Shown here: piece by piece, positions 21,891 to 61,749 of the stretch
Layout of the letters: every line of letters begins with the position of its first letter
How positions within the stretch are numbered: position 1 is the stretch's first letter
Assembly (NCBI GenBank): GCA_030390025.1
Contig: CM059431.1
Location: 154,134,001-154,198,000, forward strand
Origin: Squalus acanthias
Lineage: Eukaryota
Length of the DNA: 64,000 nucleotides
Reading direction: 5' to 3'
Translations under genes and position numbers: made by a program
Notes under the pieces: model-generated
Seen by the model: only the letters and a program-made list of their open reading frames with translations
Database searches by the model: none
What the model was told of the DNA's origin: nothing

Positions 21891-21924
21891 TACAGTGGAA
21901 ATGTAAAAGCGATTCAATCTCGGA

Positions 21925-28125: not shown

Positions 28126-28864
28126 GGGCCGAAAATTGATCCCGGGACGCGAGAGTACGCACTGCGTACTCTCGCGTATTCCCACTCCAATTGCCGGTTT
28201 TCTGCATGCCCTGCGCATGCGCTGAAAACCGGCAATTGCTCTTCCGAAAAGGGGGCGGGGCCTGGCTGCATCGCGTGCGCGCTACAGGCTGCGCGCACGC
28301 TGTGCACTTCATGCTTTGGACGCGCAGGTAAGCAGGGAAGATTTTGGAAATGTAAAAAGGAGTAAGACCCGCTTTTAAGAAGGTAAGTAGTGAATAAAGT
28401 ATTTTTTTGATTTTTTTTTACAGGTATATCTTTTTTATAGACTTTAAAGACAGGTAAGTTTATTTTTATAACTTTTTAAAAGATTTTAAATTTTTTCAAA
28501 AATTTAATTTTTTATTTAAAATGGTTAATTTAATTAACTATACTTATTTTATTAATGTGATGGGCTTTTTTTAAATTTAATTGAGGTTTAGCTGTTATTT
28601 TGGGGGGGTGTAAGATTCATAAGTCTCACAGCCATGCTGTCAGACTTATGAATGGAAGATGGTGTGCTGCCATTGGCTCTAACTGAGTCACGTGATCCCA
28701 CAGCTCGCACGAATTAACTACGCCGCTGGGATACGCAAGCCCAGCACAGCTGATGTCTGGAACATCAATTTCGTGCGAGCTGGATCAGAAAAAGCATAAG
28801 CGAGGTGAGACAACGCGGGAAAGGCTTACCCCCGCGGGAACAGAGCGAGATCAATTTCTGGGCC
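28126..28864. mobile_element. Non-autonomous DNA transposon (PIF/Harbinger-like MITE)
   Basis: TIRs GGGCCGAAAATTGATC / GATCAATTTCTGGGCC; AAT duplicated at 28123-28125 and 28865-28867; empty site in copies A (~8430) and B (~13710). Confidence 0.88.
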
Positions 28865-32000: not shown

Positions 32001-32437
32001 TCATCCCTGTGCTGGCTGACCTAGACTGGCTCTCGTTTAAGCAAAGCCTCGATTTCAAATATCTCGGCATTGTTTTCAATTTCCTCCACGGCCTCGACCC
32101 TCCCTACCAGTAATCTCTTCCAACACCACCCCTCGAGCTATCAGCGATCCTCTAATTCTGCCCTCTTGAGCACCCCTGATTAGAATCGCTCAAACATTGG
32201 TTGCCGTGGCTTCAGTTGTCCAGGCCCTGAGCTCTGTAATTCACTCCCATAACCTCTCTGTCTCTCTAACTCTCTTTCCTCCTTTAAGTCGCTCCTCAAA
32301 ACCTACCTCTTGATACAAACCTGCCACAATTTCTCCTTAGGTGGCTGGGTGTCACATTTAATTTTTTATACTATTCCTATGAAGCGCATTGGGAAATTTT
32401 AGTACTTTAGAAGAGCGATATGATTGCATGTTTTTTG
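29040..32437 (+). mobile_element. Near-full-length decayed L2 LINE, copy C (uninterrupted)
   Basis: IHKLIVDHCIDIMA, PTSCCLDTIPTKLL, LLDLSAAFDTVNH; L2 tail ending ~32437. Confidence 0.9.
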
Positions 32438-32639
32438 TTGATCTCCACAACCGAGATCCTGAGAAGCTGCCGTCGTCCGAGACTTCGTACTGGGAGCGCC
32501 TGTTGGTCAGCTTTATTCACAAGCCGAAACCATCCTTATTCCTGAGTTAGGTAATATTCTGCAGACAATTATGGAGCGACTGATCATTGATGAATTAAAT
32601 GATCCTTCAGCCGGTTTTACACAGCCTGGCCGTATAATA

Positions 32640-33145
32640 TTACATTTATTCACAGATTGTTGTTTAATATTTTGGATTTGCTGTGTTTTGATATTTAATT
32701 CCTGTACTTTATGAAACTAAATAAACAATTTATAGCTTTGTGTGATTTCTCCGGTCTCTATTGGCAATGACATTGTCCGTGTATTCATGGAGTGTGTCCT
32801 GGTTGGTGCTTGTGTTTGAATATTTTGGCCATATCTCTCATGGTGTCAGCACCTGACTAATGAACGCTGTAGGAGGTGAGAAAATTGAACGCTGTTCCAC
32901 AAATATTAACACTAATGTATAATGTTATGAATTATGTAATTTTAAACAGGAATGTGATGCACATCATTTGTCTGTGGAATATCTTTAGGGATCTGACAAT
33001 CTCAGAACTGGCCATGAATATACAAGTGGTAGATTTGCCTGCTGTTTTACAATCACAATTCTTCACTTGAGCGCGTGTCTCGCGCTGTGTGTGTCCACAC
33101 ACGTGCGTCCAATCAAATTCTAAGTCGAGTCTTTTTCATTCCCCA
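32640..33145 (-). pseudogene. Orphan copy of a putative terminal exon + 3' UTR (copy C)
   Basis: Acceptor ttttacatttccgcag (AG at 33147-33146) is intact, but there is an early TAG in frame; AATAAA on the minus strand at 32645-32650. Confidence 0.45.
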
Positions 33146-33169
33146 CTGCGGAAATGTAAAAGCGATTCA

Positions 33170-34862: not shown

Positions 34863-35008
34863 TCCCACTGTCCCAACCCCGCACCGACCCAGCACCCCTC
34901 CACTGACCCAACAACGACACCCTCACTGACCCACACCGACACCTTCACTGACCCAGATCCGAAACCTGACTGATTCACCCCGACACCCTCACTGACCCAG
35001 CTCCGACA
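34863..35008. repeat. ~20-bp minisatellite at the C/D junction
   Basis: ctcactgacccagctccgacac variants, joined directly to acatccttatgttcaaaaca (homologue of ~26606). Confidence 0.8.
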
Positions 35009-35963
35009 CATCCTTATGTTCAAAACATTTCTCTCCTCCTTTGAGACGCTGTTTGAATCCTACCTCTTTGAAGAAGCTTTTGGTCACCTGTCCAAATAGC
35101 TCCTTTTGTGGCTCGGTGTCACATTTTGTTTGATAACGCTCCATTGAAGCGCCTTGGGACATTTTACTACGTTAAATCTGCTATAGTTATGCAAGTGTTT
35201 TGTTGTTCTCCTAGCGCTGTCCTGGAACCCTTTATTAATTATCTCTCCTCAAAATGGAATGTTGATCTTGTTTTATTTAACATTTTTTTACACCAATCAC
35301 ATCACTTCTCACTACTCGAAAACAACCTTCCTTTTTCCTGCTAATAATTTTTAACTATTTCATAAATATTATGTTTCAGCCCTACAATTTCGTTAATTCC
35401 GCTCTCTAGACTCAGAAGCGGAAAATTCACACCCTACAGTCATATCAGTTCATACCGGTCCCACTGCTCCATTCAACTGTTCTGTAAAACCATTCTTGTT
35501 GGTGGGTTCATATAGCGGCGGTCCATTCCCTTGACCCCGAACTCACTCTAGTGCCCCAAAAACGTGAACCCTTCCCTCTTGCGCCAGCCAAGCAGCCACA
35601 CTTGAACATGCCTCATATGTCCCTTATTAAGCAACCCAGTGCAAATCCATCCGGAGATCACCACCTTGAGACTTTGGGCTGGATTTTGATACTGGGGCGG
35701 GTTGGGGTCGTGTCATCGGCATTTCGTGTTATTCACCCGTCTGCAATTGGATGTGGAAGATTGAAGCAATTTTTACTTAATTGGGCAATTGAGTTCCAGC
35801 ATGTGGGAACCCATGAACCAATTAGTGGTTTCAGTCTGAAAGTCGCCTCTGATGATGTCATCATTGTTGCTGCATTGAAGGCTTTGAGACACTGCTTGGC
35901 CTCAGACACTGCCTAGTCTTTGCTGTGAGAGGACCTGCATGCAAAATGAGCAGCAGCTCAGAC

Positions 35964-40348: not shown

Positions 40349-42770
40349 ATAAAGGCTATGGGGTAGAAATTAGGTCGCGCCCCATTCGGGGCGCAAATAT
40401 CGTCCGGACGCAAATATTAGCGCCTGGCGCTAATTATCGGCACTGACAGGAAACTTCACTTTTACCGCCCCGGGAGGTGAGTGGAGCGCTAAAGCAGGCG
40501 CTGCACACCTCTCTTAAGGTGCAAAGGCCTAGCAGTGAGGCGCTAACTCGGAGCGCTGGCGAAGCTCATGTAATGTCAGTCAGCAATGGAACACACACAC
40601 AATGGCACGGGCCAGTTCTTAAAGGGGATGGTTAATCTTGCTTTCCATCCACATCCTGTTCATTGCTGCCTTGAATCTCGGCCTGGAGAGACTTGCACAT
40701 CAAATGTTCTGGAAAGATCAATGGAGAGCACCAGGCAAAGAGCTCAGAGTGCAGCTCCCATGGTCTCTGCTAAATCGATACAAGGAATGGCAAATCAAAA
40801 TGAACCTGCAAAGTGCTGCTCAGTACCCAAAACTCCTTCACACAACGTTGAATCTCTCCAGAAGTCTCTCCCTCTCTCTCTCACAATGCGTAGTTCAAAA
40901 ATGCCACCAACAATAAAAGACAGGAAGAGGCCCCCTTTAATTAGCGCCCCCCCCAGCCCCGCAGCGATTGATAGCGTTCCAGTCTTCTGGTCGTTGGAAG
41001 CGCCAGGCGGTAAGGCAGGGGGCGCCACTCAATTTCCGCTACGGGGCGCCCCAAGGGCGTTGCACCATGGAATGACGTCACAATCTGCGCGCGCAGGTGG
41101 TCGCAGCGGTAAGTTTTAGCGCCGCCGCACAATCTCAAGTTAAGTTCTCGAGCGGCGCAAACATCGCTGCGCAAGGGCGTTAGCGGCTTTGCGCCCCATT
41201 AGCGCCCTCTTAAGGCGCTAACGGGAGGCGCAACCAAGTGAATTTTTACCCCTATGTGTCCTGACAACGTCCCGGCTCTCGTGCTGAATCCTTGTGCTCC
41301 AGAACGAGACGCAACTCAAGCCAAGCTGTTCCAGTACAGCTACAACACTGGTATCTATCCGACTGAAAATGTGCCCAGGTATGTCCTGTCCACAAAAAGC
41401 AGGAAAAATCCAACCCGGCCAATTACTGCCCCATCAGTATACTCTCAATCGTCAGCAAAGTGATGGAAGGTTTCATCGACAGTGCTATCAAGCGGCACTT
41501 ACTCACCAATAACCTGCTCACTGATGCTCAGTTTGGATTCCGCCAAGACCACTCGGCTCCCGACCTCATTAAAGCCTTGGTCCAAACATGGACAAAGGAG
41601 TTGAATTCCAGAGGAGAGGAGAGAGTAACTGCCCTTGACATCAAGGCAGCAATGCCCGAGTGTGGCATCAAGGAGCCCTAGTAAATGTGAAGTCAATGGG
41701 AATCGGGGGGGAAACGCTCCACTGCCTGGAGACAAGCCCAGCACAGAGGAAAATGTCTGTGGTGGCTGAAGGTCAATTATTACAGCCCCAGGACATCGCT
41801 GCAGGAGTTCCTCAGGGCAGAGGCTAAGGCCCAACCATCTTCAGCTGCTTCATCAATGACCTTCCCTCCAAGTTAAGGTCAGAAATGGGCTATTCGCTGA
41901 TGACTGCACAGTGTTCAGCGCCATTCACAACGCCTCAGACAATGAAGCAGTCCATGCCTGCATGCAATAAGACCTGGACGACGTCCAGGCTTGGGCTGAT
42001 AATGGCATGTAACATTCGCGCCACAGAAGTGCCAGGCAATGACTACCTCCATCAAGCGAGAAACTAACCACCCCCCCCTTGACATTCAACGGCATTACCA
42101 TCGCCGAATTCCACACCATCAACAACCTGGGGGTCACCGTTGAGCTTAACTGGACAAGCCACATAAATACTGTGGCAAAAAGAGCAGGTCAGAGGCTTGG
42201 TATTCTGCGGCGAGTGTCTCACCTCCTGAATCCCCAAATCCCTTCTACATCCTACAAGCCAAAAGTTAGGAGTGTGATGGAAAAATCTGCACTTGTTTGG
42301 ATGAGTGATGCTCCAACAACACTCAAGAAGCTCCACACCATCCAGAACAAAGCAGCCCGCTTTATTGGAACCCCATCCACCACCTTAAACATTCACTCCC
42401 TCCGCCATAGGCGTACCGTGGCTGCAGTGTGTACCATCTACAAGATGCACTGCAGCAACTCGCCAAAATTACATTTGCAGCACATCACAAACACTCGACC
42501 TCTACCACCTAGAAGGACAAGGGCAGCAGGCGCATGGGAACACCACCACCTCCAACTTCCCCTCCAATCAAACACCATCCTGACTTAACAGTATATCGAC
42601 GATACTTCATCGTCGCTGGGTCAACATCCTGGAACTGCTAAAATAAACACACAGATTACAGCGGTTCAACAAGGCAGCTCACCACTACCAGCGCCTCAAA
42701 GGTAATTAGGAATGGGCAGAAAATGCTAGCCTTCCCAGCGAAGCCCACATCCCATAAACGAATAAAAGAA
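40349..42770 (+). mobile_element. 5'-truncated Zenon/Daphne-like LINE inserted in L2 copy D
   Basis: QFGFRQDHSAPD, ALDIKAA and SLRHRRTVAAVCTIYKMH; tail aataaaagaa; the L2 resumes at gcccaccctccgagata. Confidence 0.88.
40360..41252. mobile_element. PIF/Harbinger-like MITE nested in the Zenon-like LINE
   Basis: TIRs GGGGTAGAAATT / AATTTTTACCCC; TAT at 40357-40359 and 41253-41255; GC-rich subterminal agcgcc repeats. Confidence 0.88.
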
Positions 42771-43289
42771 GCCCACCCTCCGAGATAAATGCGCTCCTAT
42801 AATTCTGCCCTCTTGAGCATCCCTAATTATAATCGCTCAACAATTGGTGGCCGTGCCTTCAGTTGCCCAGGCCCAAAGCTCAGGAATTCCCGCTCTAAAC
42901 ATCTCCGCCTCTCTACCTCTCTTTCCTCCCTTAAGTCTCTCCTTCAAACCAACCTCTTTGAACAAGGTTTTAGTCATCTGCCATAATGAGGCTCGGTGTC
43001 AAATTTTGTCTTATTATACTCCTTTGAAGCGCATTGGGACCCTTTACTACGTTCCAAGCGCTATGTAAATGCACGTTGTTATGTTGATCTCCACAACCGA
43101 GTTCCAGATGGGCTCCCGTCGGTCGGGATTCCGCACTTTGAGTGCCCGTTGGTATGCTTTACTCACAGTGCACGCCAAAACCAGCCTTATTCCTCAGGTA
43201 GAGAATATTCTGCAGGCAAATATGGAGCGGGTGATCATTGGTGAATTAAATGATCCTTTACTTGATTTTACAGTCTGGCGGTATACTTT

Positions 43290-45077
43290 TATATTTATTC
43301 TCCGATTATTTTTAATATTTTGAATTTGCTGAGTTTTGCGATGAAATTCTGGTAGTTTATGACTCTAATATCTATCGACACGCAATATATGTGATCCCTC
43401 TGCTCTCTATGAGCAGTGACAGTGTCCGTGTGTTCATGGAGATGTGTCCTGATTGGTGCTTCTATTTGAATGTATTGACCATATCTCTCCTGGTGTCAGC
43501 ACCTGACCAATGAGCACTGTGGGAGGTGAGGACATGTTCCACTGTTCTACTAATATTAACACTAATGAATAATGTTATGAATCATGTAACTTTAAACAGT
43601 GAGATGATGCACAGCATTGATTACTGGAATATATTTAGGGGTCTCACAATCTCAGATTTGGCCAAAAATATATAAGTGGTAGATTTGCCTGCTGTTTTAC
43701 AATCACAATTCTCCACGTGTGTGTGTCTCGCTGTGTGTGTGCCCACACAAGTGTGTTCAATTACACTCTCAGACACGTCCTTTCCTTTCCCCACTGCGGA
43801 AATGTAGTTTCTCTCTCGGATATGTAATTTCTCCAAAATATATTTAAAGTTATATTCCGGAATTAATTTAGAACTAAGTTTGAGACCTTGTAAATCTCAG
43901 TTATCTGCTGTTTGATACCAAGTATAATAAACAATTAAGTCACATAAGTCACAGCAACAACTTGCATTTCCACAGCTTGAGTGGAGCATAAACTTCGGCA
44001 TGGACTGGTTGGGCGGAATGGTCAGTTTATTTGCCGTCTATCCTATGTAATCCTATGTAATTCACATTATGCTCTCCATGCATTCTCCCCGCCGACAACG
44101 ATGCTTCCTCTTGACCTTGGTCACTTAACGGCATCCTGCTGTGACTTACCTGGAATTGATTTATCAGATAATGCAAGTGTTCTCTTCCCTTTATTTGCAG
44201 GGATGCTGCATTAGCAGTTTACGGGGCGGCCGACTCGATACCGATTTATTGATGAATTTACATGCATGTATTTCCCTTAAATCCAAGATGAAGCCGGTGC
44301 TCAAAAATACAAAACACACCATTGAACAGCGAAAGGAAACGGTGATCGGTTAACAAGTGTTTTGGAAATATTGTGAACTCAATTGCAATCGCAATAAACT
44401 TAATGGATATAATTACACCGAATACTTAGGAAATTAATTTAGGAAAATCGTTTGTGATATCAATAGAAAATAATCACACAGTCATCAATAAATTAGCCAA
44501 TACATGACTGTAACTGCTATAATTTAACAACTGAATGTAACTGACTTTAAAACTCAAAGGGATTGGCGGGGGCCGTGTCGGAGAAAGGCGTGAGAGGTAG
44601 CTCTATTAATAAAGTCAAAAACTCATCATCAACAACTTGCATTTGTATGGCGTCTTTAACGTTGAAAATAAATATTCCAAGCCGCCTAAAGAAATTTTAA
44701 TGAGGCAAGAACGCACACATCCCGGCTACCGAGAGAGATAATGCGGGTTAACGAGAATTTAGATAAAGTGCGACAAAAAAGTGCATTTTTGAGCATACGT
44801 TTTCGGAGTGTCAGGAGATGTAGAGTTGGCGAATTTAGGCAGAGAATAATGAACTGCGTGGTATCTTTCTTTTTATCCACCAGAAATGCAACTGGTTATT
44901 TCACTATTTGTATTTCCTGCATCATTACTGTCAGCAGTGAAATCTTACCGCGATTTTACCGGTTTGGCCAACAACACGTCACCAGAATTCCTAATGCTCC
45001 CACCAGTGTTCCAACTGAGACTGAAACCGTGACGAATATCTTGCAATGTTCGTCGATTATTGCAGTATCGTCAATCA
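43290..45077 (-). pseudogene. 3' part of an unidentified type-I membrane-protein gene: TM exon 45077-44949, 39-nt exon 44188-44150, terminal exon from 43793 (stop 43621)
   Basis: AG/GT-bounded phase-1 exons splice to IDDTAIIDEHCK-IFVTVSVSVGTLVGALGILVTCCW-PNR*NRG-KRTLALSDKSIP-VGKGKDVSES...STTYIFL...IFQ*. Donors are G|GTAAGA and G|GTAAGT; AATAAA at 43299-43294; in-frame TAA at 44958-44956. Confidence 0.6.
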
Positions 45078-45184
45078 CTGTAATTATAGAATATGTTTGA
45101 GCTGTTGCCTTTCAAGTATTCATTGACATTCCAAATAATCTCAAATAATTCTAAAAGCTGCTGACATGTTATTTCATAACTCTC

Positions 45185-47255
45185 AGAGAAAGAAAGACGA
45201 TAAGAGAAGTATGAACGTTCCGTGACTAACCAAGGAAGTAAAGGAAGTTATCGACTTGAAAATAAAAGCAAATAATGTTGCGAAGAACAGTGGATGCCCA
45301 GAGGATCGGGACATTTGTAAAAAACAGTAAAGGATGACTAAAAAAATGATAAACAGAGAGAAGATAGCCTATGAGAGGAAGCTAGCAAGAAATATAAAAG
45401 CAGACAGTAAGAACTTCTACAGGTATATAAAAAGGAAAAGATTAGCTAAAATAAACGTTGGCCCCTTATAGGAAGAGTCTGGGGAATTAATAATGGAAAA
45501 CATATAAATAGTGGAGACTTTGAACAAATATTTTGTACCGGTCTTCACGGTAGAAGACACCACAAGCATCCCAATAATGGATAATCAGGGGACAATTGGG
45601 GAACTTCAAACAATCACTATCATTAGAGGGAAAGTACTAGACACATTCATGGGACTAAAGGTGGACAAGTCCCCTGGACCCGATTGCCCGAATCCTAGAG
45701 TCTTAAAAGAGGTGATTGCAGAGATAGTGAATGCATTGATTGTAATCCACCAAAATTTCGTGGATTCTGGAGAGGTCCCTGCGGACAGGAAAACCGCAAA
45801 TGTAATGCCCCGATTTAAGAAAGGAAGGAGACAGAAAGCAGCCAACTATCGACCAGTTAGCCTAAAATCTGTAATTGTTAAAATGCTTGAGTCCATCTTT
45901 AAGGAAATGCTAGCAGGACATTTAGAAAATCATAATATAGTCAACCAGAGTAGGCATGGTTTTATGAAATGGAAATCATTTTTGACAAATTGCTGGAGTA
46001 CTTTGAGGATGTACCGAGCAGGGTGGTTAAAAGGGAACCAATAGATGTGCATTTGGATTTGCAGAAGGCATTCGATAAGGTGCTACATAAAAAGGTTACC
46101 ATACAAGATAAGAGCTCACGGGGTGGGTGATAATATATTAGCATGAATAGAGGATTGGCTAAAAAACAGAAACCAGAGAGTCGGGATAAAAGTGTTACTT
46201 TCAGGTTGGCAAACTGTAACTAGTGTGGTGCCGCAGGGATCAGTGCTGGGGCCTCAACTATTTACAAACTATATTAATGACTTGGATGAAAGGACTGAGT
46301 GTAATGTAACCAAATTTTCCTGATAATACAAAGATTGGTGGGAAAGCAAGTTGTGTGGAGGAGTCAAAGAATCTCCAAAAGAGTAGAGATAGGCTAAGTG
46401 AGTGGACAGGAATATGGCAGATGGAGTATAATGTGGGAAAATGCGAGGTTATCCACTTTGGTAGGAAAAATTAAAAAAAAATATTATTTAAATGGGGAGA
46501 GATTAAAAATGCTGAGGTACAGAGGGATCTGGGGGATATGTATGCATGAATCATAATAAAGTTAGCATGTAGGAGCAGCACATAATCAGGAAGGACAATT
46601 GAGTGCTGGACTTTATTGCAAAGGGAATGGAGTATAAATGTAAGGATGTCCTTTTACAGCCGTACAAGGCGTTAGTGAGACCACACCTGGAGTACTGTGC
46701 ACAGTTTTGGTCTCCTTATTTAAGGAAGGATATACTTGCATTGGAAGCAATTCAGAGAAGGTTCAAGATGTTGATTCCGGAGAGGAAAGGGATCTCTCAT
46801 GAAGAAAGGTTGAGCAGGTTATGCCTTTACTCGTTGGAGTTTAGAAGAATGAGAGGTGATCTTATTGAAACATATAAAAATTCTGAAGGGGCTAGACAGG
46901 TTAGATGAAGATAGGATCTTTCCCCTCGTGGGGGAATCTAGAACTAGGGGGCATAATTTCATAATAAGGGGGCACTCATTTAAAACGGAAATGAGGAGGA
47001 ATTTCTTCTCTCAAAGGATCGTGAATCTTTGGAATTCTCTTCCCCAGAGAGCTGTGGCGGCTGGGTCATTAAATATATTTAAGGTGGAGATAGAGAGATT
47101 TTTGAATGGTAAGGGAGTCAAGGGTTATGGGGAGCGAGCAGGGAAGTGGAGTTGATGCCAAGATCAGATCAGCCATGTTCTTATTGAATGGCGCTGCAGG
47201 CTCGAGGGGCCAAATGAGTTACTCCTGCTCCTACGCCTTGTGTTCTTATGTTATG
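45185..47255 (+). mobile_element. 5'-truncated CR1 LINE (RT half)
   Basis: LNKYFVPVFTVED, KSPGPD, NYRPVSL, RPHLEYCAQFWSP, FFSQRIVNLWNSLP; tail tcttatgttatgttc. Confidence 0.93.
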
Positions 47256-49157
47256 TTCTTCCTTTTATCGTTTGTCTACCTCATTATTCAGTTTACATTT
47301 TGATATCCTCTGCTGTTTTCACCGTTATTCTTTGTCAGGTGAGCTTAACTTTGTGCATTTCTGCACTTTGCCTGAATAACGTGCATATAAAGTATGGCCA
47401 AGAGATTTATCAGAGAAGAATGTGTGCCACGGTTGGGTTGACTGTGCACTGGGTGATCTTCTGTTCGTTCACCAAATGACCGCGACATATAACACTGGAC
47501 AACCTGTAATATATTCAAGTCTATACATGTTCCGACACCGCCATTTAGTCCTGCTTCTGGGCATGGACTCGTTACGATTTTCCGATTCTAATGCTAATCG
47601 GAACAAATTGACTGTTGAAGTTGCTCACTTTTGCAACCAGGTGGCGATGCTTAGCTCCAGAAGCTGCTTTTTCCCAATTGATGGGCCAAATTTATCGGTG
47701 GGTATGACGGCGTACACTGAGAGTACACCGTCATACCGCCTTTGAAAATGACCACAAGTTTGCGTTTTCCACATGCGCTTCAATAGGCGCTAAATACCGA
47801 ACATGGGATGCCTTGACAGATGATTTGCACCAACAGGAAATACTCATACTGGAATATTGTTGGGCCAATTGCCCACTAACTGCCTGGCAATTGCGTGTGA
47901 AAATTTTACAGTTAGTGTAAGCAGGTGCAGTAGCCTGTTTCACTGTGAAAGGGATCCATTTCTGTTGAATATTGAGAACAATCAGCGGATATAGATGCAA
48001 GCAATACAACTTTAACCCTAAAACGTGCACAATATTCAAATTGTTCCTTGAGTTTAAATAAAATTGAAGTGATACTGTTGCCAGAATACCACCCACAGAA
48101 ACAAACAACATGTACCGAACACATACCACTTGAAATAACCGAAGAATTAAAGGGATTTGTTTTACAGCAGAGAAGTAGGCTGAATGTGTTCGCTCCACCG
48201 ATTTCACAGTGCCTCTGAAATAATTGTTAATCGTTCAGGTATCACTTTACAATAAAATGCATGTCCCTAGTGGCAACATTTAGAAATATTAATAATAATA
48301 TAAAATATGACAGTTATTATTTAAAATGATCAATGTTTTCTGCACTCCAAATGTATGATCAAGACCTGGGCATCTGACAAATATAATTTATACTTCCTCC
48401 AAATGTATGAAATAAAATCATTTTGCTATTTCATTATTTTATTAAATATATTTAAAGCTGCCCCACAGTTGTTGTGCTAGGGTCATAGTGTATAGTAAAT
48501 CAAAATGAGCATTGCCAAAGCCTTTCTGTGCTGCTGAATCCCAATCCATCGTAAAGTTACTGCGACATTTTAATATTTGTTTTCACTAATGGACATTTGA
48601 CAGGATATTAAATGCTAGTCTTAACAGAAGAAATTTTTTTTTCCTGATTTACATAAACTATTTACACATCCGGAATTTGAAAGCCGGGATGGTGAAGTAC
48701 AGCACAAGCAATTCTTTGGGCTGGCAAAAAACTCTGCAACGCTCTTCAATGTTCCTCAGAGCAAATAAGAAAAGGAACAAGATTCTTAGTATGAAATATA
48801 AAAAAAATAAAGTTTAATAAAAAGCCCAAGTGATAGAAACTGTAATAACCACAATAGAAGTTTGACCAGATAAACTATCTATTTCAATTTAGTAAATATT
48901 TAAATTATTATTACCCCCTGACGGTCAAAGGACGAGAATGTTTCCATTGACCACAAATTAGCATTTGTTTCATTCAAGTGGAAATCAGATGCCAAAATAT
49001 TATTGGTATTTTGTTACATAATCGTACTAAAATGCTGATATATGAATTAAGTCCAAGTAGCAGTTTAATTAAAAGTTTTTAATATATAATTTCAATGAAA
49101 GGGAATGCAGAAATTTTCTGTGGGTGTGGCTTAGATGTGACAAATTTTGTGGGCGTG

Positions 49158-52100
49158 TCATAGAGTCATAGAGTCGTAGAGTTATACAGCACAGAAAGAC
49201 GAACTACGGCACATCGTGTCTGCGCCGGCCATCAAGCCCTATCTATTCTAATCCCATTTTCCAGGACTTGGTCCGTAGCCTTGTATGCTATGGCGTTTCA
49301 AGTGCTCATCTAAATGCTACCTGAATGTTGTGAGGCTTCCTGACTCTGCCACTCATTAAGGCAGTGAGTTCCAGATTCCAACCACCCTCTGGGTGAAAAG
49401 GTTTTTCCTCAAATCCTCTCTAAACCTCCTGCCCCTTACTTTGAAACTCAATCTGGTCCCCACTCAGCCTTCTCTGCTATAAGGAATACAAACCCAGCCT
49501 GTTCATTCTCCTTTCATAGCTGAAGCGTTCAAGCCCAGGTAACATCCTGCTGAATGTCCTCTGCACCCTCCACAATGCAATCACATCCTTCCTATAGTGT
49601 GTCTACCAGAATTACACACAGTATTCCAGCAGTGGCCTAACTAGCGTTTTGTACAGCTCCATCATAACCTCCCTGCTTTTATATTCTATGCCTTGGGTAA
49701 TGAAGGCAAGTATCCCATATGCATTTTTAACAACCTTATCTACCTGTCCTGCTGGCTTCAGTGATCTATGTACATGCATACCAATGTCCGGATGTTGCTC
49801 TGTCCTTCCTAGGGTCTTACCATTCATTGTGTATTCCCTTGCATTGTTAGTCCTCCCAAAATACATCATCTCACACTTTTCAGGGTTAAATTCCATTTGC
49901 CATTTTTCTGCCCATCTAACCAACCCATCTGTATCGTCCTGCAGCCTAAGGCTTCTCTCCTCGCTATTTCCCACCCCACCAATTTTCGTGTAATCTCCCA
50001 ACTTACTGATCATACCTCCTACATTCATATCTAAATCATTAATGTACACTACAAACAGCAAAGGACCAAGCTCCGATCCCTGCGGTACACCACTGGACAC
50101 AGGCTTTCAGTCACATAAACAACCTTCAACCATCACCCTCTGCCTACTGCCACTAAGCCAATTTTGGATCCAATGTGCCAAATTGCCCTGGATCCCATCG
50201 GCTCTTAACTTCTTGACCAGTCTCCCACGCGGGACATTGACAAAAGCCTTAATGAATTCCATGAAGACCACATCAACTGCACTACCCTCATTCACACACC
50301 TAATCACCCCCTCGAAAAATTAAATCAAATTTGTTAGACATGATCTCCCCTGACAAAGCCATGTTGACATTATTTGATTAATCCTTGCCTCTCCAAGTGG
50401 AGACTATTTCTATTCCTCAGAATTTTTTCCAATAATTTCCCTACCACTGATGTTAGTACCACTGGCCTGTAATACCCTGGTTAATTCCTACTACCTTTCT
50501 TGAATAATTTTACCACGTTAGCTGCTCTACAGTCCTCTGGCAACACCCCTGTATACAGAGAGGTTCTGAATATTTGTGTCAGAGCCCCTGCAATCTTCTT
50601 CCTTGCCTCACTCAACAGCCTGGGATACATATCGTCTGTGCCTGGTGATTTATCCACTTGTCAGCCCCATAAAACCGCAAGTACCTCTTCTCTCTCAATA
50701 CTAATTTGTTCAAGTATATCACAAACCCCCTGCCTGATTTATATGCCGGCATCATCCTTCTCCATATTGAACACAGATGCAAAATATTAATTTAAAAACT
50801 CATCCACATCTTCCTGCTCTACACACAGATTGCCACTTTGGTCCCTAATGTGCCCAACTCTTTCCCTGGTTATTCTCTTGCCTTTAACATACTTATAAAA
50901 CACATTGGGATTTTCTGTTATTTTGTCTGACAGTGTTTTTTCATGTCCCCTCTTCGCTCTCCTGATGTCTTCCTTAAGTACCCCCCTGCACTTTCTATAC
51001 TCCTCTAGGGCTTCCATTGTTTTTAGTCCTTAGCATCTGCCAAAATCATCACTTTTATCCCTAATCCATTCTTGTATACCCTTTGAAATCCAGGGTTCCC
51101 TGGGCGTGTTGGTCCCAGCCTTGACCTTTATGGGAACATATTGGCGTTCTACTCTCTTTATTTCCTTTCGAATGTCGTTAGTGGCCATGATGCTGAGATG
51201 CCGGTGTTGGACTGGGGTGGACACAAGTGAGAATCGCTCAACACCAGGTTATAGTCCAACAGTTTCATTTGAAATCACAAGCTTTCCGAACTGCTGCCCC
51301 TTCGTCAGGTGAAGGAGCAGCAACTCCAAACGCTTGAGATTTCAAATAAAACTGACGAACTATACCCTGTTGTTGTGCGACTTCTCACTTATTTCCTTTC
51401 TGAAAGACACCCACTGCTCTGATGTGGATTTTCCTACAAATAGCTGATCCCAGTTCACTTTGGCCAAATCCTGCCTTATCATATTTAAATCGGCATTCCC
51501 ACCAATTTTGAACCTTTATTTCCGTTCCATCTTTGTCCTTTTCCATAACTACCTTAAATCTCTCCGAATTATAGTCACTGTCACCAAAATTCTCTCCCTC
51601 TGACACTTCTACCACTTGCCCGGCTACATTCCCTAGAATTAGTTCCAGTACCGCCCCCTCTCTTGTAGGACTTTCTACATGCTGGCTCAAGAAGCTCTCC
51701 TGGATGCAGTTTAAGAATACCGCACCCTCTAAGACTTTCAAACTTGACTATCCCAGTTAATGTTGGGGAAGTTGAAATCCTCTACTATTATTACCCTATT
51801 ATTTCTACACTTCTCCGAGATTTGCCTACATATCTGTTCCTCTATCTCCCCCTGACTGATGGGGGCCTATAGTACACACCCAGCAAAGTGCTTGCCGCCT
51901 TTTTGTTTTTAAGTTCTACCCATGTGGCCTCATTCGATTAACCTGCTAAGATATCATCCCTCCTTACAGCAGTAATTGGCTCCTTGATTAAGATTGCGAC
52001 ACCCCATCCTCTTTTACATCACCCTCTTTCTCCACTGAAGCTTCTATTCCCCGGATTATTGAGCTGGCAGTCCTGACGCTCCCTCAACCATGTCTCTGTG

Positions 52101-52400
52101 ATAGCACTAATATCATACTCCCATCTTTTCTTCAACACCTTCAATTCATCTGCCTTACTCGCAAGACTCCTTGCATTCAAATAAATGCCATCCAGCCATG
52201 CCATATTCCTTTGTGCCATTAAACTTTTGCTCTGCCTTCCAGGCTGATTTCTTTTTTTCCACTATATTTGGCTCCAGTCCATATCCCATTCCTCTGCAAG
52301 TTAGTTTAACAACGCTCCCACCATTCCCCCCCCCACCCCCAACAGTACTTGCAAACCTCCCCGCAATGATGTTGGTCCAATTCCGGTCCAGGTGTAACCC
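49158..52400 (-). mobile_element. Decayed CR1 LINE (end of ORF1 plus whole ORF2)
   Basis: YLNARSL...AITETWL (52019-52219), PTREGAVLELILGN, SGVPQGSELGP (49612-50100); tail (catagagt)n at 49158. Confidence 0.93.
51170..51388. mobile_element. Second short palindromic Penelope-derived element
   Basis: Same architecture as 39221-39411. 12-bp TSD ttatttcctttc at 51158-51169 and 51389-51400. Minus strand reads TCAC-CTGACGA-A-GGGGC...GAAA-GC-TT-GTGA. Confidence 0.85.
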
Positions 52401-52439
52401 GTCCCGTGTCTTTCAGGTGCAACCGGTCCCCGTGTCTTT

Positions 52440-52616
52440 CATTATGCATAGGCTGTACGCTGCGGTGCTGGCCTTCGAGACGTAATATGCTGCGAACACT
52501 TTTGGATTGTCGAATAGAAATTATACATGTGAGGCCTCGCACAAGGTGAGTTCGTAATCTTTTCCGGGGTCGGCAGCGCAGCTGCGGAGTACGGTGCCGA
52601 CTGCAACTTTTGGGCC
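52440..52616. mobile_element. Truncated right end of a MITE related to 58378-59104
   Basis: ggtgagttcgtaatctttt...caacttttgggcc resembles ggtaagttcgtagatttt at ~59035 and the TIR type at 28864. Confidence 0.45.
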
Positions 52617-53085
52617 AATAAATGCTTCTATAACAGCAGTGATGTACTTTAACGGATATTCGCTTGCCCCTGATTTCCCGTGGGAGACCTACTATTTCTA
52701 ATTAACGTTTCTGTATAAAATTACTTCCTGAAGTAAATGAATCATTGAAACAAAAACCTGAAATAACCGAAAGTGGTTCTGAAATAGGCAATTTAAATGA
52801 AGGAACCTCAGTGACACTTAAAATTGGTATCGTCTTTTAAAGGTAGAGTTAGCAATCACTCGTGGCATTAGATATTTGAATTTAACTATACATTGTTATT
52901 TTGTGATTAGTTGTCCATTATATTTAAATCGTGGCTTTAAGCTGAATTTTACTGAAATGTTCAGATGTCTTATAAATTGTCAAACAATCAATATCCCCAT
53001 TATATAGGAATCGAAATCCTTACATCAAGTATACGAATTGAAACGTAATTCCAACAAATAATGCCAATCCTGGCAACAGCAGAGT

Positions 53086-53700
53086 TTAACATCTTGTAAT
53101 GGGGTTGGAATTAGTTTCCGATTCGCTGGGGCCTGAAGACGATCAAAAATATACTCCCGATACATTCTGTAAAATAAAGAATTAATTTTAGAAGTATGAA
53201 CCAGAGATCCAACATTTTGCCGCGTCCAGTACTAATTGAGATTTCTCATTGTTGGTTAGTGCCAGAAACAAAACACAGTAAGTAGCAGCTTTTGCAATCA
53301 GAGAAAGCATTAGGACTTTACCAATGGCGTGATTACCCTGACCTTCTGTTCACTCTCCGGCATCTTTCTCACGACCTTAATCAATCTATTTGGCATTTGC
53401 ACCTCCCATCCAATCAGCGCCGTGCTTGCACCTCCCAGCCAATCAACGCCATCTCCATTCACATTTCGCTCTCCATCTTTCCCGTATCGTACTCTGTTTC
53501 ATCCAGGATCTGCCTACATCCTTTTATGCTAATTCTGCCTCCACATGCTTCACTAACTCCTTATAATTAACATTAATTTCATTCTTCCCACTTTTCTCCC
53601 CGCCGACACCGATAATCCCTCCTGACGATGCTCACTTAACCTTGATCCTGCTTTGATTTACCTGAACTTAATTTATTAGAATATAAAAGTGATCCCTTCG
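53086..53700 (-). pseudogene. Paralogous gene fragment: 39-nt exon 53700-53662 and candidate terminal exon 53132-53086
   Basis: 53590-53857 is homologous to 44080-44353. Same aataaAG acceptor, same exon length, open phase-1 frame KGSLLYSNKLSS, donor G|GTAAAT. A downstream acceptor tttttgatcgtcttcAG gives GPSESETNSNPITRC*. Confidence 0.45.
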
Positions 53701-55663
53701 CTTTATTGGTAGGGATGTTACGTTCGCAGTTTACGGGGCCGGCCGACTGGATAAATATCGATTTAATGCATTTATTTCCCTTAACTACACGATCAAGCGG
53801 ACAATGAAAAATGCAAAACGCACCATTGAACAGCGAAAGGAAACGGTGAGAGGGTTAGGAAGCAAGATTGCGAATCCAGCTTCAACCTATTCCATAACAT
53901 GAAGGGTTAGACACTCGAAATTGCTTCCCAATTTTCCCACCGATCTCTTGCGATAACGAACCCCCTCGTGGTCTTCTCATGGTTGGTGAACTGCGCTAGC
54001 AGAATCCATAGAGCTAAACGGGCTGTTGCGTGGCGGCGACAAACCTCTCGATTGGGAGTCCAATATTGGCCGTTTTACACTATCGCTAAAAGTTAAATTT
54101 ACTCCCAATACTTAGAGCAGGAATTATCTCGTTACTACAAATCCACACGAAATGTTGAAATATGACTTCAGAGACCTCGTCATTTTGAATGCGCAGTTTG
54201 ATAGAATTCCAAAGCTACAGCAACATTGCAGAATTCACGCAAAGGGTCGGTAACCCCACAGCTTCGGTTTCCGGCTTCACTAAACCCGCGCAGTAGGATC
54301 CACCATTATAAACTAAAGAATATTAATATTTTTTCCTATGCTCGACTTTGCTGAAATAGCGCGCGAGTGGAACTGATTGCTTCGCTCTTTCAATGAGCCG
54401 GTGCTGTTACGATGGACAGAAAGACCCTCATCTGTGCTGTAGGTTTCTCCGATCCATCCATTTATTTAACGTTACCTTTTCAAACGAAAGCTCACAGTTT
54501 CACGCTGGCAAAGCGGTCGCTGGGTATTGTAAGCAGTGCAGTTATGGAAGTGAACTATAAACATCTAGAGAAGGAAATATTATCGACAATCACGTTGCTA
54601 TTATTTTATTTATCAGTTTCGAGGAATAATTCTGTGCGCGATGAAAAGCGTTAGGTTAAAGATGCAAGGTACCATACAACGGATACATCGAAGTTATCCC
54701 CACATGCTCACATGTTCCCAAAGCTAAATCCAAGGATATGATTTTAGTATTCGAAAGTGTCGTAAAATTCGCGATATCGAATTATCGGCCCATTGTACAC
54801 ATTGCCCGATTAAAGTTAAGGGAAGTGAAAATTGGGCGGCTGTATAATGGGTGGCTAAACTAAAGTTACTCACATTTGTCTGTGTTTGACTGTATATTCT
54901 AATCGTAGATTAAATTGAATTGGCGGCACTGTTAACCATAAAACCACAATGGATTTAGTGGGTTATTAATTGAAGTGGTTTTCACTTTCATCCCGATTCT
55001 CCGGTTCCCTGCTCAAGTGGTGGGGCCTCGAAGCAAAATTGTTAATGCGGTTAACAGGGACATTTCACTCATTACCGGACACTTTCGTGCAAGAAGAACG
55101 AAAAATAAGTCGTTGTGTTATTCTCTGACATGAAGAATACCGTGCAATTCCCTGAAATGCATTCCAAGTATTTTCACACAAAATAAACAAGTATACAACG
55201 TACAGCTGGCACGATATAGAATTGTACAATGTGCAGCCATCACAATAAAGGCACACTAGGAGCAGGCGCACAAATGTACAGGCGTACAATGCATGGGCAG
55301 ACAACGTACAGTCACAAACACGCAGGTGTACAATGCAATGACACACGCTGTACAGGGGAATAGTGTAAATGCACACATTCTATAAGAGCACAATGTACAG
55401 GTGCATAATTCCCAGATACAAAACGTTAAAGTGCTGAATGCACAGGCAAACAACGTACAACTGCATAATGTATAAGCACATAATATACAGGGGGACCATG
55501 TTCAAGCGCTCAATGTGCAGGCAAACAATGTACTTGTGCTTAATTTAGAAGCACTGAAAGTACAGGTGCACCATGTTCAAGCACACAATATACAGGGAAA
55601 CAATGTACTAGTGCCTAATGTACAAGTATAGAGTGTACAGGTACACAATGTTTAAGTGCACAA

Positions 55664-57792
55664 CCTGGAACACTACAGACAGTTACCCGCAGATCCGACC
55701 AAAGAACACACCCGCCAACTCAATAGACTGATCAAGAGCTTCGATCCAGACCTTCAAAGCATCCTATGCGCTCTCATCCCACGTACTTCCCGCGTGGGAG
55801 ACTTCTACTGCCTCCCAAAGATACACAAAGCCAACACAACCGGACGTCCTATCGTATCAGACAACGGAACCCTGTGTGAGAACCTCTTTGGATACGTCGA
55901 GGGCATCCTGAAACCCATCGTACAGGGAACCCACAGCTTCTGCCGCGACACCACAGACTTCTTACAGAAACTCAGCACCCACGGATCAGTTGAACCAGGA
56001 AAACTCCTCGCCACGATGGACGTATCGGCACTCTACACCAGTATCCCCCACGATGACGGCATCGCTGCGACAGCCTCAGTACTCAACACCAACAACAGCC
56101 AATCTCCAGACGCCATCCTACAACTCATCCGCTTCATCCTTGAACACAATGTTTCAACCCTTCGACAACCATTTTTTTACCCAAACACACGGAACAGCAA
56201 AGGGGACCAAATTCGCACCCCAATACGCCAACATCTTCATGCACAAGTTCGAGCAAGACTTCTTCGCTGCACAGGACCTCCAGCCAACGCTGTTCACCAG
56301 ATACATGGACGACATTTTCTTCCTTTGGACCCATGGCGAAGGATCACTGATAAGACTACACGATAACATAAACAAGTTCCATCCCACCATCAAACTCACC
56401 ATGGACTACTCCTCAGAATCGGTTTCATTCCTGGACACACGAATCTCCATCAAAGACGGACACCTCAGCACTTCACTCTACCGCAAGCCCACGGAAAACC
56501 TCACGAAGCACCACTTCTCCAGCTGCCACCCTAACCACGTTAAAGAAGCCATCCCCTATGGACAAGCCCTGCGAATACACAGGATCTGCTGAGACGAGGA
56601 GGAACGCGATGGACACCTACGGCCGCTGAAAAACGCCCTCGTAAGAACGGGATATGACGCTCGACTAATCGATCGACAGTTCCGAAGGGCCACTGCGAAA
56701 AATCGCATAGACCTCCTCAGAAGGCAAACACGGGACACGATCAACAGGGTACCCTAAGTCGTCCAGTACTTCCCCGGAGCGGATAAACTACGGCATGTTC
56801 TTCGCAGCCTTCAACATGTCATCGATGACGACGATCACCTCACTAAGTCCATCCCCACGCCTCCACTACTTGCCTTCAAACAGCTGCCTAACCTCACAAG
56901 TACCATGGTTCGCAGCAAATTACCCAGCTTTCAGGATATCAGCGACCACGACACCACACAACCTTGCCACGGCAACCTCTGCAAGAAATGCCAGATCATC
57001 AACACAGATACCATCATCACACGTGAGGACACTACCCACCAGGTACATGGCACATACTCATGTGACTCGGCCAACGTTGTCTACCTCATACGTTGCAGGA
57101 AAGAATGCACCACGGCATGGTACATCGGCGAGACCATGCAGACACTGATACAACGTATGACTGGACACCGCGCAACAATCGCCAGGCAGGATTGTTACCT
57201 CCCAGTCGGGGAACACTTCAGCAGTCAAGGACATTCAGCCTCGGATCTGCGGGTAAACGTTCTCCAAGGCGGCCTTAGAAACACACGACAACGCAAAATC
57301 ATCGAGCAGAAACTAATAGCCAAGTTCCACACTCATGAGGACGGCCTCAACCGGGATCTTGGGTTTATGTCACGATACATGACGTAGAGTCATCCAGACT
57401 CGAGTCGTCCATGGCTTGTTCACAGATGTGATTCCCAGTAAAAAAGTAAAATTTTTAAAGTTTATCGTTTTCCATACCGACTGCAGCTTTTTACACATTA
57501 GACCCCCTGTAACTCCACCTCATTCTCTCAGTTGTATCTTGCTATGTCTTTGATGTGGTGCCTTCCTGGCTGACCTGATTGCCTTTTGTCACACCTCGGC
57601 AGATAAACAGTCAGGATGATTAAATGTAGTCGTTTTCCATTGTAAGTTACATATGCATTGTTCTCCATCTATATATGCTTTGTCGATTCTGTATTTCTTC
57701 ACTTCACCTGACGAAGGAGCTCCGAAAGCTCCGAAAGCTTGTGATTTCAAATAAAACTGTTGGACTATAACCTGGTGTTGTGCGACTTCTCA
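55664..57792 (+). mobile_element. 5'-truncated Penelope-like retroelement (RT + Cys linker + GIY-YIG; probably Neptune-type)
   Basis: LPKIHK..GRPIVS, MDVSALYTSIPH, GTAKGTKFAP.YANIFM, RYMDDIF, linker PCHGNLCKKC, NVVYLIRC...WYIGET...RMTGH. 13-bp TSD TTTAAGTGCACAA (55651-55663, 57793-57805). Frameshift near 56155 and internal stops. Confidence 0.95.
57704..57744 (+). ncRNA. Minimal type-I hammerhead ribozyme motif in the Penelope 3' repeat
   Basis: Stem I TCAC/GTGA, core CTGACGA (plus one extra A), stem II GGAGC/GCTCC, GAAA, palindromic AGCT stem III, cleavage triplet CUU. Confidence 0.75.
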
Positions 57793-57989
57793 TTTAAGTG
57801 CACAATGTACAGGCGCCCACAGTACCGCAACAAACAACTAAATGTTTCAACCCATGCAGACACAAATAAATAAATCATACAGAATCACACTTTCTCTCCA
57901 TCGCAATCAAATTTATTGGCCCACTGAGTTTAGAGGAGATTTGATAATGATAACTATTGTTGTCACTTCTGGCGCATGTCAATGAGTAC

Positions 57990-58350
57990 ATTGAATTGCA
58001 TAGATGTTACTGCACAACAAGAAGCTACTCGATCCAACTGTTCCATGCCAAAATTTATGTTCCACACGATCGTCCTTCCATCCCTCTTCATCTAACCCAA
58101 TCAGCATAACCTTCTTTCCTTCTATTCCATTCTCCCACATATGTATATCTAGCTTCCTCTAAAATGCATGTATGCTATTTGTCTGAACTGCACCTTGTGG
58201 TCGCCCATTCCACATTCTAGCCAGCCTCAGGGTAAATAAGTTACACCTGAATTCCTTATTGGATATATTGTTGACCGTCTTATACTTATGAGCCCGAGTT
58301 TTGGCCTCGCCACAAATGGAAACATGTTCTCTACGTCTACCCTTTCAAAT
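57990..58350 (-). mobile_element. CR1 3' fragment
   Basis: Reverse complement of a CR1 tail (ccctcttcatctaaccc.atcagcata; ttccacattctagcca..ctc.gggtaaa). Confidence 0.75.
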
Positions 58351-58377
58351 TTGTATTGGAGAAACAATCGTGACACT

Positions 58378-59104
58378 GGGCCGTATATTCCGATCCATAC
58401 TGGTTTGTACGCGTGGTGTACACACCCGTAGGGACATCGGAAATACCGGCTTCAGGTATACGAAGCGGATGTGCTGAAAACCGGCATTTCCGATCTGTCA
58501 AGAATGCTCTTGACAGATCGGACGCCTGCCCTGTAGAAGGGCCTCTGCGGGTGGAGAATTCCGCTTTCTGGAGAACCTCCACCCGCTGAAAACCCTTAGA
58601 ATTCTCACGCTTGATGAAAGCAGGCATAAGGCCTGCTTTTACCAGCACAAGAGTTGGGAAAAGTAAAAAGAAATTTCTCTCATTTATAAATTAAAAATAC
58701 TTTTAAAAAAGGTTTATTATTAGCCCCTTAAAAAAATTTAATTATTTTTTTCAAAAAATTAAATTTTATATTAAAATATTTAATTTATTTTAATTTCAAC
58801 TCCATTTAAAAATGTGATGATGGAAAGAAAAACATTTAACATTTTACAATGTTTTTGGTGTGATCTCCATTCATATATTTGACAATGTCTATCTGTCTAT
58901 CTGAAGATTCCCTTCTCCTAATGGCACCCCATGTGCCACGTGATCCCAGGGACCCTTGTGAACCGCATGCGCCTCTGGGATACGTGGGCCTTGCGCATTT
59001 CGAGTTTGGAGAGCACCAGGATCGGTAGCCTCAGGTAAGTTCGTAGATTTTTCCAGATCGGAGGCCTCCGCACGCAGGAACCCTACGAATGGAAAATACG
59101 GGTC
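58378..59104. mobile_element. PIF/Harbinger-like MITE related to 28126-28864
   Basis: Imperfect TIRs GGGCCGTATATTCC / GGAAAATACGGGTC; ACT at 58375-58377 and 59105-59107; shares gctgaaaaccggc, cacgtgatccca and gggatacg with the 28-kb copy. Confidence 0.8.
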
Positions 59105-59437
59105 ACTGTCTCTGAAACGACATTCGCCAAGATACTTTTGCATATATATCATAGAATAATTGAATTGTAGAGCACTTTAATTTTGTATTACTACAAACAA
59201 TAATAATAATGACAATAAGCAAATTACCAACTAGGAAAGTTGAACTGGAAAACAAATCTTGACAAACAAAGAGATAGCATTTCTTTGGAAAAATATAAAC
59301 ATGTGATTAATAGAGTTCAGGAGGAAAATATTCCGGTAAAAAAAGAGCTTGCGAATAATGAGGCACAATTGATCAGTAAGGAGTTAAGGATAAAACCGTA
59401 GCTAAAGAAAAAGTTAAACACTAAGTACATCGACAAT

Positions 59438-60600
59438 GGCCCTGAATATTCGATCGGAGGCTTCCTGCGATCGGATATCTCTGACTGGAAAAAAATTACG
59501 AACTTACCGGCTGGTTCCGCAGATCCCGAGGCTTTCGATCCGGGGCCTCTGCTCTTCGAAAATGCGTCGAGATACAGGTATCCCAAGGGCGCATCCGCCC
59601 CTGGAGCCACGCGAGCCAGGCTAACCAATGAATCAAGGGAATCCCCCTTCATACTTCATGTACGGACAGAACTGGCAAAAGTATAAATGGGGATCACATT
59701 TAAAAACACACTAAAACATTTTTTTAAATGTAAAATACGTTGTATATTTTAAATTAATTAGAATTGCTATTTAATTAAATATTTTAAACACAAATTAAAT
59801 TTTTGGAAAAAAATAATTCAATGTTTTTACGGGGCTAAATATGATCCGGATTTTCCGATTCAAACGGGTGCATACTAGGTGTTTACGCGCCCGTACGTAC
59901 CGCCGAAGTGCCGGTTTCAGGCAAGCGAAGCACTTGCGTTGAAGCCCGGCACTTGCGATCTGTCAAGAAATCTCTGGAAAGATTATCCGCATGCCCAAGA
60001 AAAGTGCCTCCGCGGGTGGAGAGTTGCATCTTTTTGAAAAACTTCCAGCCGCAGAAAGCCGTCAAATTCTTACGCTTGCTTAAAGCTTTTACCAGCGTAA
60101 GAGTTTTAAATCATAGAAAAATAAAATTGTATCACTAAGTGATCAATTAAAGATACTCTTATGAAAGGTAAGTGTATTGGGCCAGATTTTGCGACCACTG
60201 CGTGTGCGTACGAGGTATGTATGCGCTCGAAGGCTCGCGCAAATTCCATGCTTAGGTATGCGAGGCGCATGCGTTAAAACCCGGAACGTGCCATCTCTGA
60301 AGAAGCTACTCGTCAGATTATCCGCATCCCCGGTGGAATTGCCTCTGCGGGTGGAGAGTTGCGATATTTGCCCAACTTCCGCCCGCTGAATGCCCGTGAA
60401 ATACTTACTCTTGGTAAAAGCAGGCATAAGGCTTTTACTAGCATGAGAGTGTTAAAAATTAGAATGTTTTTTACATTAATTTATATATTAAAAACCCTGT
60501 CCAATAAAGCGAGTTTATTTTTTGGCCCGTTAAAACATAAAAGTTTTTTTCAAAACTTTGAATATGTTTTTAAATATTGTTATTCACAACTTTTTGTTCA
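59438..60600. mobile_element. Three further partial copies of the same MITE family (~59438-59840 inverted; ~59845-60130; ~60179-60600)
   Basis: Repeated gcctc.gcgggtggaga and gcttttac.agc blocks; 59438-59620 is the reverse complement of 58940-59104. Confidence 0.75.
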
Positions 60601-61252
60601 ACTGCACCACTGACACCGTATGCTGGATATTCACTTCGTCTTACATTTTAATTTGCATCGCCGTGGAGATTCCTTGGTTGTTATTAATTCGTTTTGTTAA
60701 TAAATTCTGAATAAAGCACAGCGTGCTCCAAAATTACATTAGATGAACTCGACCTGTTCTGGAACCGACAAGTTCAGACTGAAGTGGAACCTCTGAATTC
60801 CGTTCAAAATATATTTATAAATCCCCCGTGAATTATTTTCCCCTTTGCATTATAATCTTTGTTGTCTGATAAATTAGACCGTTTTTTGTAAATCTATTTG
60901 TACAAATGTCCGAATCCTTCAAATAAATTGTCTGTATCCTAATTATATAGTTATCAGGAATCATAATTAAAGTTTATGATCTGAAACAGCAATATCAAAA
61001 GTAATGGCAGGACTAACATCAGCGGGTAGAAGTTCGTCATAATGTGATGCCATTGAAGTACGGAGGGGTTGGTGGAACTCTGCCACTGACGCACAATATT
61101 CAAGCGCGCAATAACATTCACAAAAAATAACATAAAGAATCACGCTCTCCCTAACGTACAATCCTAGATATCGGCCCATTGAGTTAAAGCTCATTTGCAG
61201 AGACTTCCTAATGTTGAATATTGTTGTTACTTCTGGCAGATGACAATCATGT

Positions 61253-61675: not shown

Positions 61676-61749
61676 AATATTTGTTTTCAATGGAATGTTT
61701 AGCTGTTCCCTTCTTGATAAATCGCAGATCGCAGGACCCCAGGTTAAGG

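Follow-up and report, generated by a model that had tools for sequence, protein, structure and literature searches.

A candidate transmembrane exon, possibly a gene relic, in a duplicated and retrotransposon-rich region of the Squalus acanthias genome

The 64,000-nucleotide stretch of Squalus acanthias DNA analyzed here (hereafter, the window) carries on its minus strand a 129-nt exon-like piece, at 44949–45077, which we tentatively read as the stranded transmembrane exon of a dead single-pass membrane-protein gene. An earlier note on this DNA had proposed that this piece and two others at 43290–45077 form the 3′ end of a receptor-like gene, a pseudogene or tail-less member of a possibly immune receptor cluster. 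Together the three pieces do not amount to the 3′ end of a functional signalling receptor, and the locus most likely makes no protein.

The helix-like exon candidate

The layout described in the earlier note was borne out. On the minus strand lie a 129-nt piece (45077–44949), a 39-nt piece (44188–44150), and an open stretch that runs from an acceptor at 43793 to a stop ending at 43621. The first two have AG and GT ends, and all three are phase 1 throughout and join in frame, their splicing being predicted from the sequence. An in-frame TAA (44958–44956) stands three residues past a CCW in the 129-nt piece, and before it lies a second donor, CCG/GTAAAA (1.6 bits), use of which would put the 39-nt exon in the frame EENTCII-stop. 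An AATAAA at 43299 starts 322 nt past the last stop. Splice scores come from a rough matrix of general splice-site frequencies and are ranked against the window's 8243 AG sites and 6883 GT sites. None of the three pieces has a reverse-transcriptase or other significant Pfam match.

Around them the region is pieced together from partial duplicates, similar in age, and retrotransposon fragments. Across the window, duplication at about 80% identity affects many blocks unrelated to one another, and retrotransposon fragments abound, with reverse-transcriptase matches (Pfam) at 41.4, 45.5–46.3, 49.6–50.3, and 55.9–56.6 kb and elements that, by their likeness in sequence, we take to be CR1, L2, SINE, and Penelope.

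The 129-nt piece encodes a 24-residue uncharged stretch followed by basic residues, including an Arg four residues past the CC, that is, a single hydrophobic helix (best Kyte–Doolittle mean 2.16, over 21 uncharged residues) with a basic inner side. Both of its ends, taken at the candidate splice sites, are phase 1; a phase-1 helix exon is a feature of type-I Ig-superfamily proteins. The donor scores 4.2 bits, in the top 1.4% of GT sites, and the acceptor 0.3 bits, in the top 11% of AG sites. GC content is 0.46 in the exon, compared with 0.34 upstream and 0.41 downstream, and the ratio of observed to expected CpG is 1.38 in the exon and 1.09 in the first intron, compared with a window value of 0.61 and with 0.42 in the last piece. 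Neither strand of the window contains another such helix exon, and no second copy of this one was found within its 64 kb. Antisense to the exon, a plus-strand open frame of 136 codons (44690–45097) ends in a Thr-rich and then a hydrophobic segment and has no Pfam match.

Hydrophobic stretches of this kind occur at the chance rate: those of 21 uncharged residues with hydropathy of at least 2.0 number two in the window, against a mean of 1.4 over 400 local shuffles. A helix exon with equally good splice sites and phase-1 ends arose in 1 of 400 shuffles, one of the same quality in any phase in 10 of 400, and one with looser donors in 43 of 400; the thresholds were set post hoc at the observed scores, so these null rates flatter the exon. 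Support for an exon origin is real but modest, and the helix exon is the only piece that beats chance.

A less probable explanation, which nonetheless deserves serious weight, is coincidence: the locus was never a gene, and an open stretch of hydrophobic codons in unique, CpG-rich non-coding DNA is flanked by an AG and a GT through chance alone. The chance rate of helix-like stretches is what this predicts, downstream pieces are easily added to such a stretch (40% and 64/547 in the counts given below), the last piece and 44083–45200 differ in CpG content, and the searches described here gave the helix exon no homologue, domain, or second copy. Moreover, because 185 windows of the genome were surveyed, an event with a rate of 0.25–2.5% is expected somewhere. 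Coincidence sits poorly with the finding that phase-1 ends and these scores came together in only one shuffle of 400, and with the donor of the 39-nt piece, considered below.

We prefer the stranded exon because the helix exon is beyond easy chance (1/400, 10/400), is followed by basic residues, and has a high GC content, while decay is indicated by the TAA, the weak acceptors of the first two pieces, dN/dS values near 1, and a poorly kept 39-nt piece. The 129-nt piece would once have coded for the helix of a single-pass protein and then been severed from its gene, which would have been broken up by duplication, insertion, and deletion, its remains drifting without selection. Of these processes, the region shows partial duplication (about 80% identity), the insertion of retrotransposons, and, in the downstream pieces, neutral drift. 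Pseudogene fragments in segmental duplications appear as isolated exon-like pieces among partial duplicates of ∼80% identity, with a neutral pattern and retrotransposon fragments at the breakpoints, and these are the features seen at the locus. We infer the relic, and its status as a fragment, from shape alone, because the searches described here returned no parent gene and no homologue that ties the helix exon to a real gene. Two observations count against it: CpG depletion is seen in neither the helix exon nor the first intron, a poor fit to an old methylated gene end, and a long decay is hard to square with a helix that still lacks charged residues. Were the piece such a relic, it would be of little consequence, a further gene fragment among duplicates and retrotransposons.

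The 39-nt piece and the proposed last exon

The 39-nt exon candidate (44150–44188, minus strand) joins a perfect donor, CAG/GTAAGT, to a weak, purine-rich acceptor. At 8.8 bits the donor is the best on the minus strand of 43–64 kb. The acceptor scores −3.1 bits, which 32% of the window's 8243 AG sites equal, and ten better-scoring acceptor sites lie between the helix donor and this exon. As an exon, then, the piece claimed in the earlier note has the right ends, phase, and frame; its donor is perfect and its acceptor poor. A mini-exon with a donor as good was absent from all 192 test stretches, and the presence of the best donor of a 21-kb region 800 bp downstream of the helix exon, on the same strand and on a frame-symmetric piece, argues against coincidence.

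The piece sits in a block of about 265 bp (block A, 44083–44345, minus strand) with a second copy on the same strand at 53594–53849 (block D); 204 of 254 aligned bases are identical (about 80%), and beyond about 265 bp the flanks show no homology (z −0.2, −1.1). Block D has its own 39-nt AG/GT piece, at 53700–53662, in phase 1 and open. Length, both splice dinucleotides, and the open frame are kept in both copies, and no coding conservation is seen between them: the 39-nt pieces have 28 of 39 bases and 4 of 12 residues in common, whereas their flanks are better kept (122/148 and 54/67 bases). Either a small tail exon that has decayed or an unrelated donor could account for the 39-nt piece. On the minus strand around block D, an exon-like piece (54564–54476) lies 775 nt upstream of the 39-nt piece and a strong acceptor (53166, 6.0 bits) 495 nt downstream; the comparable spacings at block A are 760 nt on the helix-exon side and 356 nt on the last-piece side. 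We rejected D as a paralogous gene with 54564–54476 as its helix exon (DNA z 0.0; protein score 18, reached by 38% of windows).

Alternatively, blocks A and D might be two copies of a promoter, possibly interferon-responsive, whose short first exon ends at the perfect donor, the helix piece upstream being unrelated. We regard this as improbable; it is compatible with either a relic or a chance origin of the helix exon. Both blocks carry a GAAA-N-GAAAC motif (at 44331 and 53835, two of the six matches in the whole window), which we take to be ISRE-like and which lies inside the best-kept 29-bp run, and block A has a GC box. A promoter would also suit the pairing of strong donor and poor acceptor in both copies, the 6.0-bit acceptor at 53166 after D's donor, and a CpG observed/expected ratio of 1.03 over 44083–45200 and 52520–55050, since cold-blooded vertebrates also have their promoters marked by non-methylated islands (PMC3583005). 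It is weakened by conservation that is not significantly patchy (longest run p 0.06; runs of at least 8 p 0.68), by CpG retention of 8/20 between A and D against 149/438 in six other ∼80% pairs (p 0.63), and by the lack of known-family coding sequence after either copy.

The proposed last exon (43621–43793, minus strand; 56 open codons past an acceptor in the top 4.4% of the window's AG sites) is multi-copy DNA that evolves neutrally and has a usable acceptor. It belongs to a duplicated block of ∼1 kb, of which copy A (42772–43806) includes the proposed exon, the AATAAA at 43299, and a presumably SINE-like tail. Copy B (20854–21905) is 79% identical to A; copy C (32126–33158) is 78% identical, its proposed frame interrupted by a stop and a 2-nt frameshift. 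The AATAAA is retained in copy C and missing in copy B. Similarity between A and the other two ends at 43806, 13 bases into the intron, and upstream of the block B and C have a LINE-like piece and other DNA in common that are absent from A; the LINE 3′-end-like piece before copy B on the minus strand is, we assume, L2. No helix or 39-nt exon was found near B or C. Since these copies hold the last piece only, and the helix exon is single-copy in the window, the receptor cluster of the earlier note does not emerge from them.

Across the three copies the last exon gives dN/dS values of 1.34, 0.92, and 1.12 (55–56 codons, proposed frame), neutral pairwise rates that do not alone exclude constraint on branch A because B and C are clearly dead. 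Variable columns are distributed flatly over codon positions (10/13/12), and identity per 60 nt is no higher in the exon (0.75–0.92) than beyond the stop and the AATAAA (0.62–0.92). Neither purifying selection nor codon periodicity is seen among the copies. Of the earlier 'pseudogene or tail-less member', the pseudogene survives as the single likeliest reading, whereas the signalling tail shows no coding constraint. Last exons of this kind also come easily: of the 192 test stretches, 40% contain 50 open codons behind an acceptor of at least 2.5 bits. Plus-strand coding in the last block was considered and rejected; one frame gives dN/dS of 0.46–0.48, but the codon pattern is flat and there are stops.

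TTYIFL, in the same piece, had been called an ITIM/ITSM-like motif, a label that its residues do not bear out. The consensus is (S/I/V/L)xYxx(I/V/L) for ITIM and TxYxx(V/I) for ITSM, as given in PMC12151841; TTYIFL has T at −2 where the ITIM needs S/I/V/L, has L at +3 where the ITSM needs V/I, and lies behind the in-frame TAA. The tyrosine is indeed replaced by Cys in copies B and C, and the Cys letter at 43673 is also found in five contigs from three sequencing runs (X1–X3), so Tyr is a minority state and not a kept motif. The Cys letter is not listed for one X3 contig (depth 2.4) that spans the tyrosine position. Loose ITIM/ITSM-like motifs occur in 64 of 547 open 56-residue stretches (12%); because both these and chance last exons (40%) are common, models of this kind need splice or homology evidence. 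The full model of the earlier note, an inhibitory receptor with a tyrosine motif in which the TAA would be put down to sequencing error or to a null allele of recent origin, draws on the phase-1 pieces, a frame open except for the TAA, and that single X3 contig. The departure from both consensuses, the Cys in B, C, and five contigs, and a tail free of constraint make it very unlikely.

X1–X3 are contig-level runs of one study, chosen by species label and with the RNA type guessed, and were aligned to the window at 80% likeness. On the last block their contigs show 80–99% likeness (none reaches 99%) and fall in pieces between 43085 and 43753 that flank the AATAAA; among the listed pieces none bridges the AATAAA, and one covers intron DNA (43814–43971). 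Compared with B and C, 25 contig differences match B's letter, 19 C's, and 8 neither, as counted over 33 of the 40 listed rows (116 in total), with 5 rows in a SINE-like piece and 2 minority rows left out. Differences equal to neither copy suggest that further copies of the block probably lie outside the window. The contigs have no joints and no cover on the helix-exon and 39-nt-exon bins, which weighs neither for nor against expression. High-copy repeat pieces in the proposed introns (43975–44060, 44590–44668, and from 45206) attract hundreds of contigs, with summed depths of 500–18000.

Search for an ectodomain and for relatives

Pfam searches of 133 open frames above 43 kb, 228 frames of the lower non-LINE zones, and 9 read-through frames found no receptor domain, of the Ig type or otherwise, and a motif scan of six frames found no Ig domain within the window; the credible Pfam matches are reverse-transcriptase fragments only. 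An exon scan of 45200–63900 gave three candidates ending in phase 1, two in a reverse-transcriptase fragment and one in a repeated element. Inside the window, then, the 19 kb upstream yielded no ectodomain exon, and the ectodomain could lie beyond the window's end. Among nine ATG-to-donor candidates for a leader, found in six unique zones, one ends in phase 1, and its start is not hydrophobic.

Word-seeded searches, which covered longer proteins only, returned no homologue at E ≤ 10 among 10 candidates for the last exon, and none among 24 for the helix exon or 102 for the A/B/C alignment. The helix exon had no match at E ≤ 0.001 among 1.84 billion protein representatives, none in the PDB, and nothing at ≥0.9 in the atlas. 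Rfam gave two matches on 42700–55100, both far below cut-off, and metagenome pattern scans gave either no match or, in all, 65 that extend over no more than 29 bases. A literature search found no description of the locus or of a matching shark family, which says little when there is no family name to search with. Several candidate identities were set aside. A K1 glycoprotein match of the helix peptide (Pfam) is noise, at E 0.024 and 15 bits against a cut-off of 27; a viral envelope end was sought through 114 pattern matches in viral contigs, none of them confirmed, and no LTR-like ends were visible by eye; and a GPR139-like cassette gave no 7TM match, four short motifs yielding scattered matches only. 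With no ectodomain exon, homologue, or consensus tyrosine motif, nothing within the window supports the label 'immune'.

These results bear on whether the locus could encode a live, tail-less membrane protein, with an ectodomain more than 19 kb upstream, the TAA as its natural stop, and the downstream pieces as untranslated exons. We consider this unlikely, and equally doubtful the role that such a protein would have, that of a non-signalling adhesion or decoy receptor. The helix is clean and the donors are strong, the downstream pieces would be expected to be neutral if untranslated, and the stop lies 46–49 nt from the last junction, inside the zone of 50–55 nt that escapes nonsense-mediated decay (PMC1854916). 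The acceptors of the first two pieces are weak, however, and neither an ectodomain or leader exon in 19 kb nor a protein relative was found; this lowers the probability of a live gene without excluding it, because the queries were short and introns can exceed 19 kb. We give as little credence to its extension, in which the locus would be an unannotated shark receptor, a tail-less decoy with an 8-residue alternative tail via the second donor, and part of a fast-evolving family near the genome's NLR cluster. A live gene would be a sign of an unannotated receptor family in a cartilaginous fish, and it would carry the stop-in-helix route to non-signalling paralogues, known from the CEACAMs of mammals, back to a far older lineage.

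A precedent for a live gene of this form is provided by horse CEACAM45, 53, and 54, paralogues of CEACAM1 with a stop in the transmembrane exon, the transcripts of CEACAM45 keeping the tail exons as non-coding sequence (PMC5856374). The likeness is one of layout only: a stop in the transmembrane exon (here the TAA at 44958–44956), small untranslated tail exons, and a duplicated region. The horse genes have Ig domains, cDNAs, and similarity to CEACAM1 (PMC5856374), whereas here we found no CEACAM match, N-domain or other Ig exon, or protein similarity, with short queries of low power. CEA homologues have been reported from a skate EST (PMC4079198); these make the CEACAM comparison possible but supply no link. 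PD-1 and other ITIM/ITSM Ig-superfamily receptors, known from sharks to humans, likewise have a single helix and tail exons with a tyrosine, but their motifs are conserved and fit the consensus in the account given in PMC12151841, whereas TTYIFL fits neither, is Cys elsewhere, and stands behind a stop. A living version of the locus would function as tail-less CEACAM paralogues do; on the comparisons made here, it belongs neither to the CEACAM family nor to any ITIM/ITSM family.

Other features of the window

Among six duplicate pairs of ∼80% identity, transversions exceed transitions (1096 and 815, pooled), possibly through alignment error; neutral vertebrate DNA usually shows more transitions than transversions. 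Examples of such pairs are 5609–8827/10942–14112, 6542–8433/26235–28121, 8433–10184/28865–30605, and 43085–43806/21184–21905. An older duplicated family of unique DNA, on the minus strand at 52604–53261, 60587–61223, and 57861–57983, has about 62% identity and scores 125 against a shuffle maximum of 52. At its 61-kb copy, an acceptor at 61232 is followed by 87 open codons (60970–61230) that contain SHYDEL, a true match to the ITIM consensus; this 87-residue frame has no Pfam match and no usable atlas match.

CpG observed/expected reaches 1.0–1.3 in the AT-rich stretches 44083–45200, 52520–55050, and 59000–61000, compared with a window median of 0.62; these stretches are possibly non-methylated islands or young insertions. 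A frameshifted retroelement on the plus strand (55656–57384), with a reverse-transcriptase match at E 1.5e-05 and a C-terminal part that is presumably Penelope-like, is probably young because it is CpG-rich. Related AT-rich and CpG-rich elements at 58377–60580 and 28100–28760 have internal direct repeats and an inverted pair (58711–58896/59662–59847), and are possibly a family of non-autonomous DNA transposons. Tandem arrays of 27-bp and 22–23-bp units (22941–23343, 34896–35009) lie 1–2 kb upstream of copies B and C on the minus strand, and decayed arrays of 39-bp and 75-bp units occur at 4763–5604 and 55442–55663.
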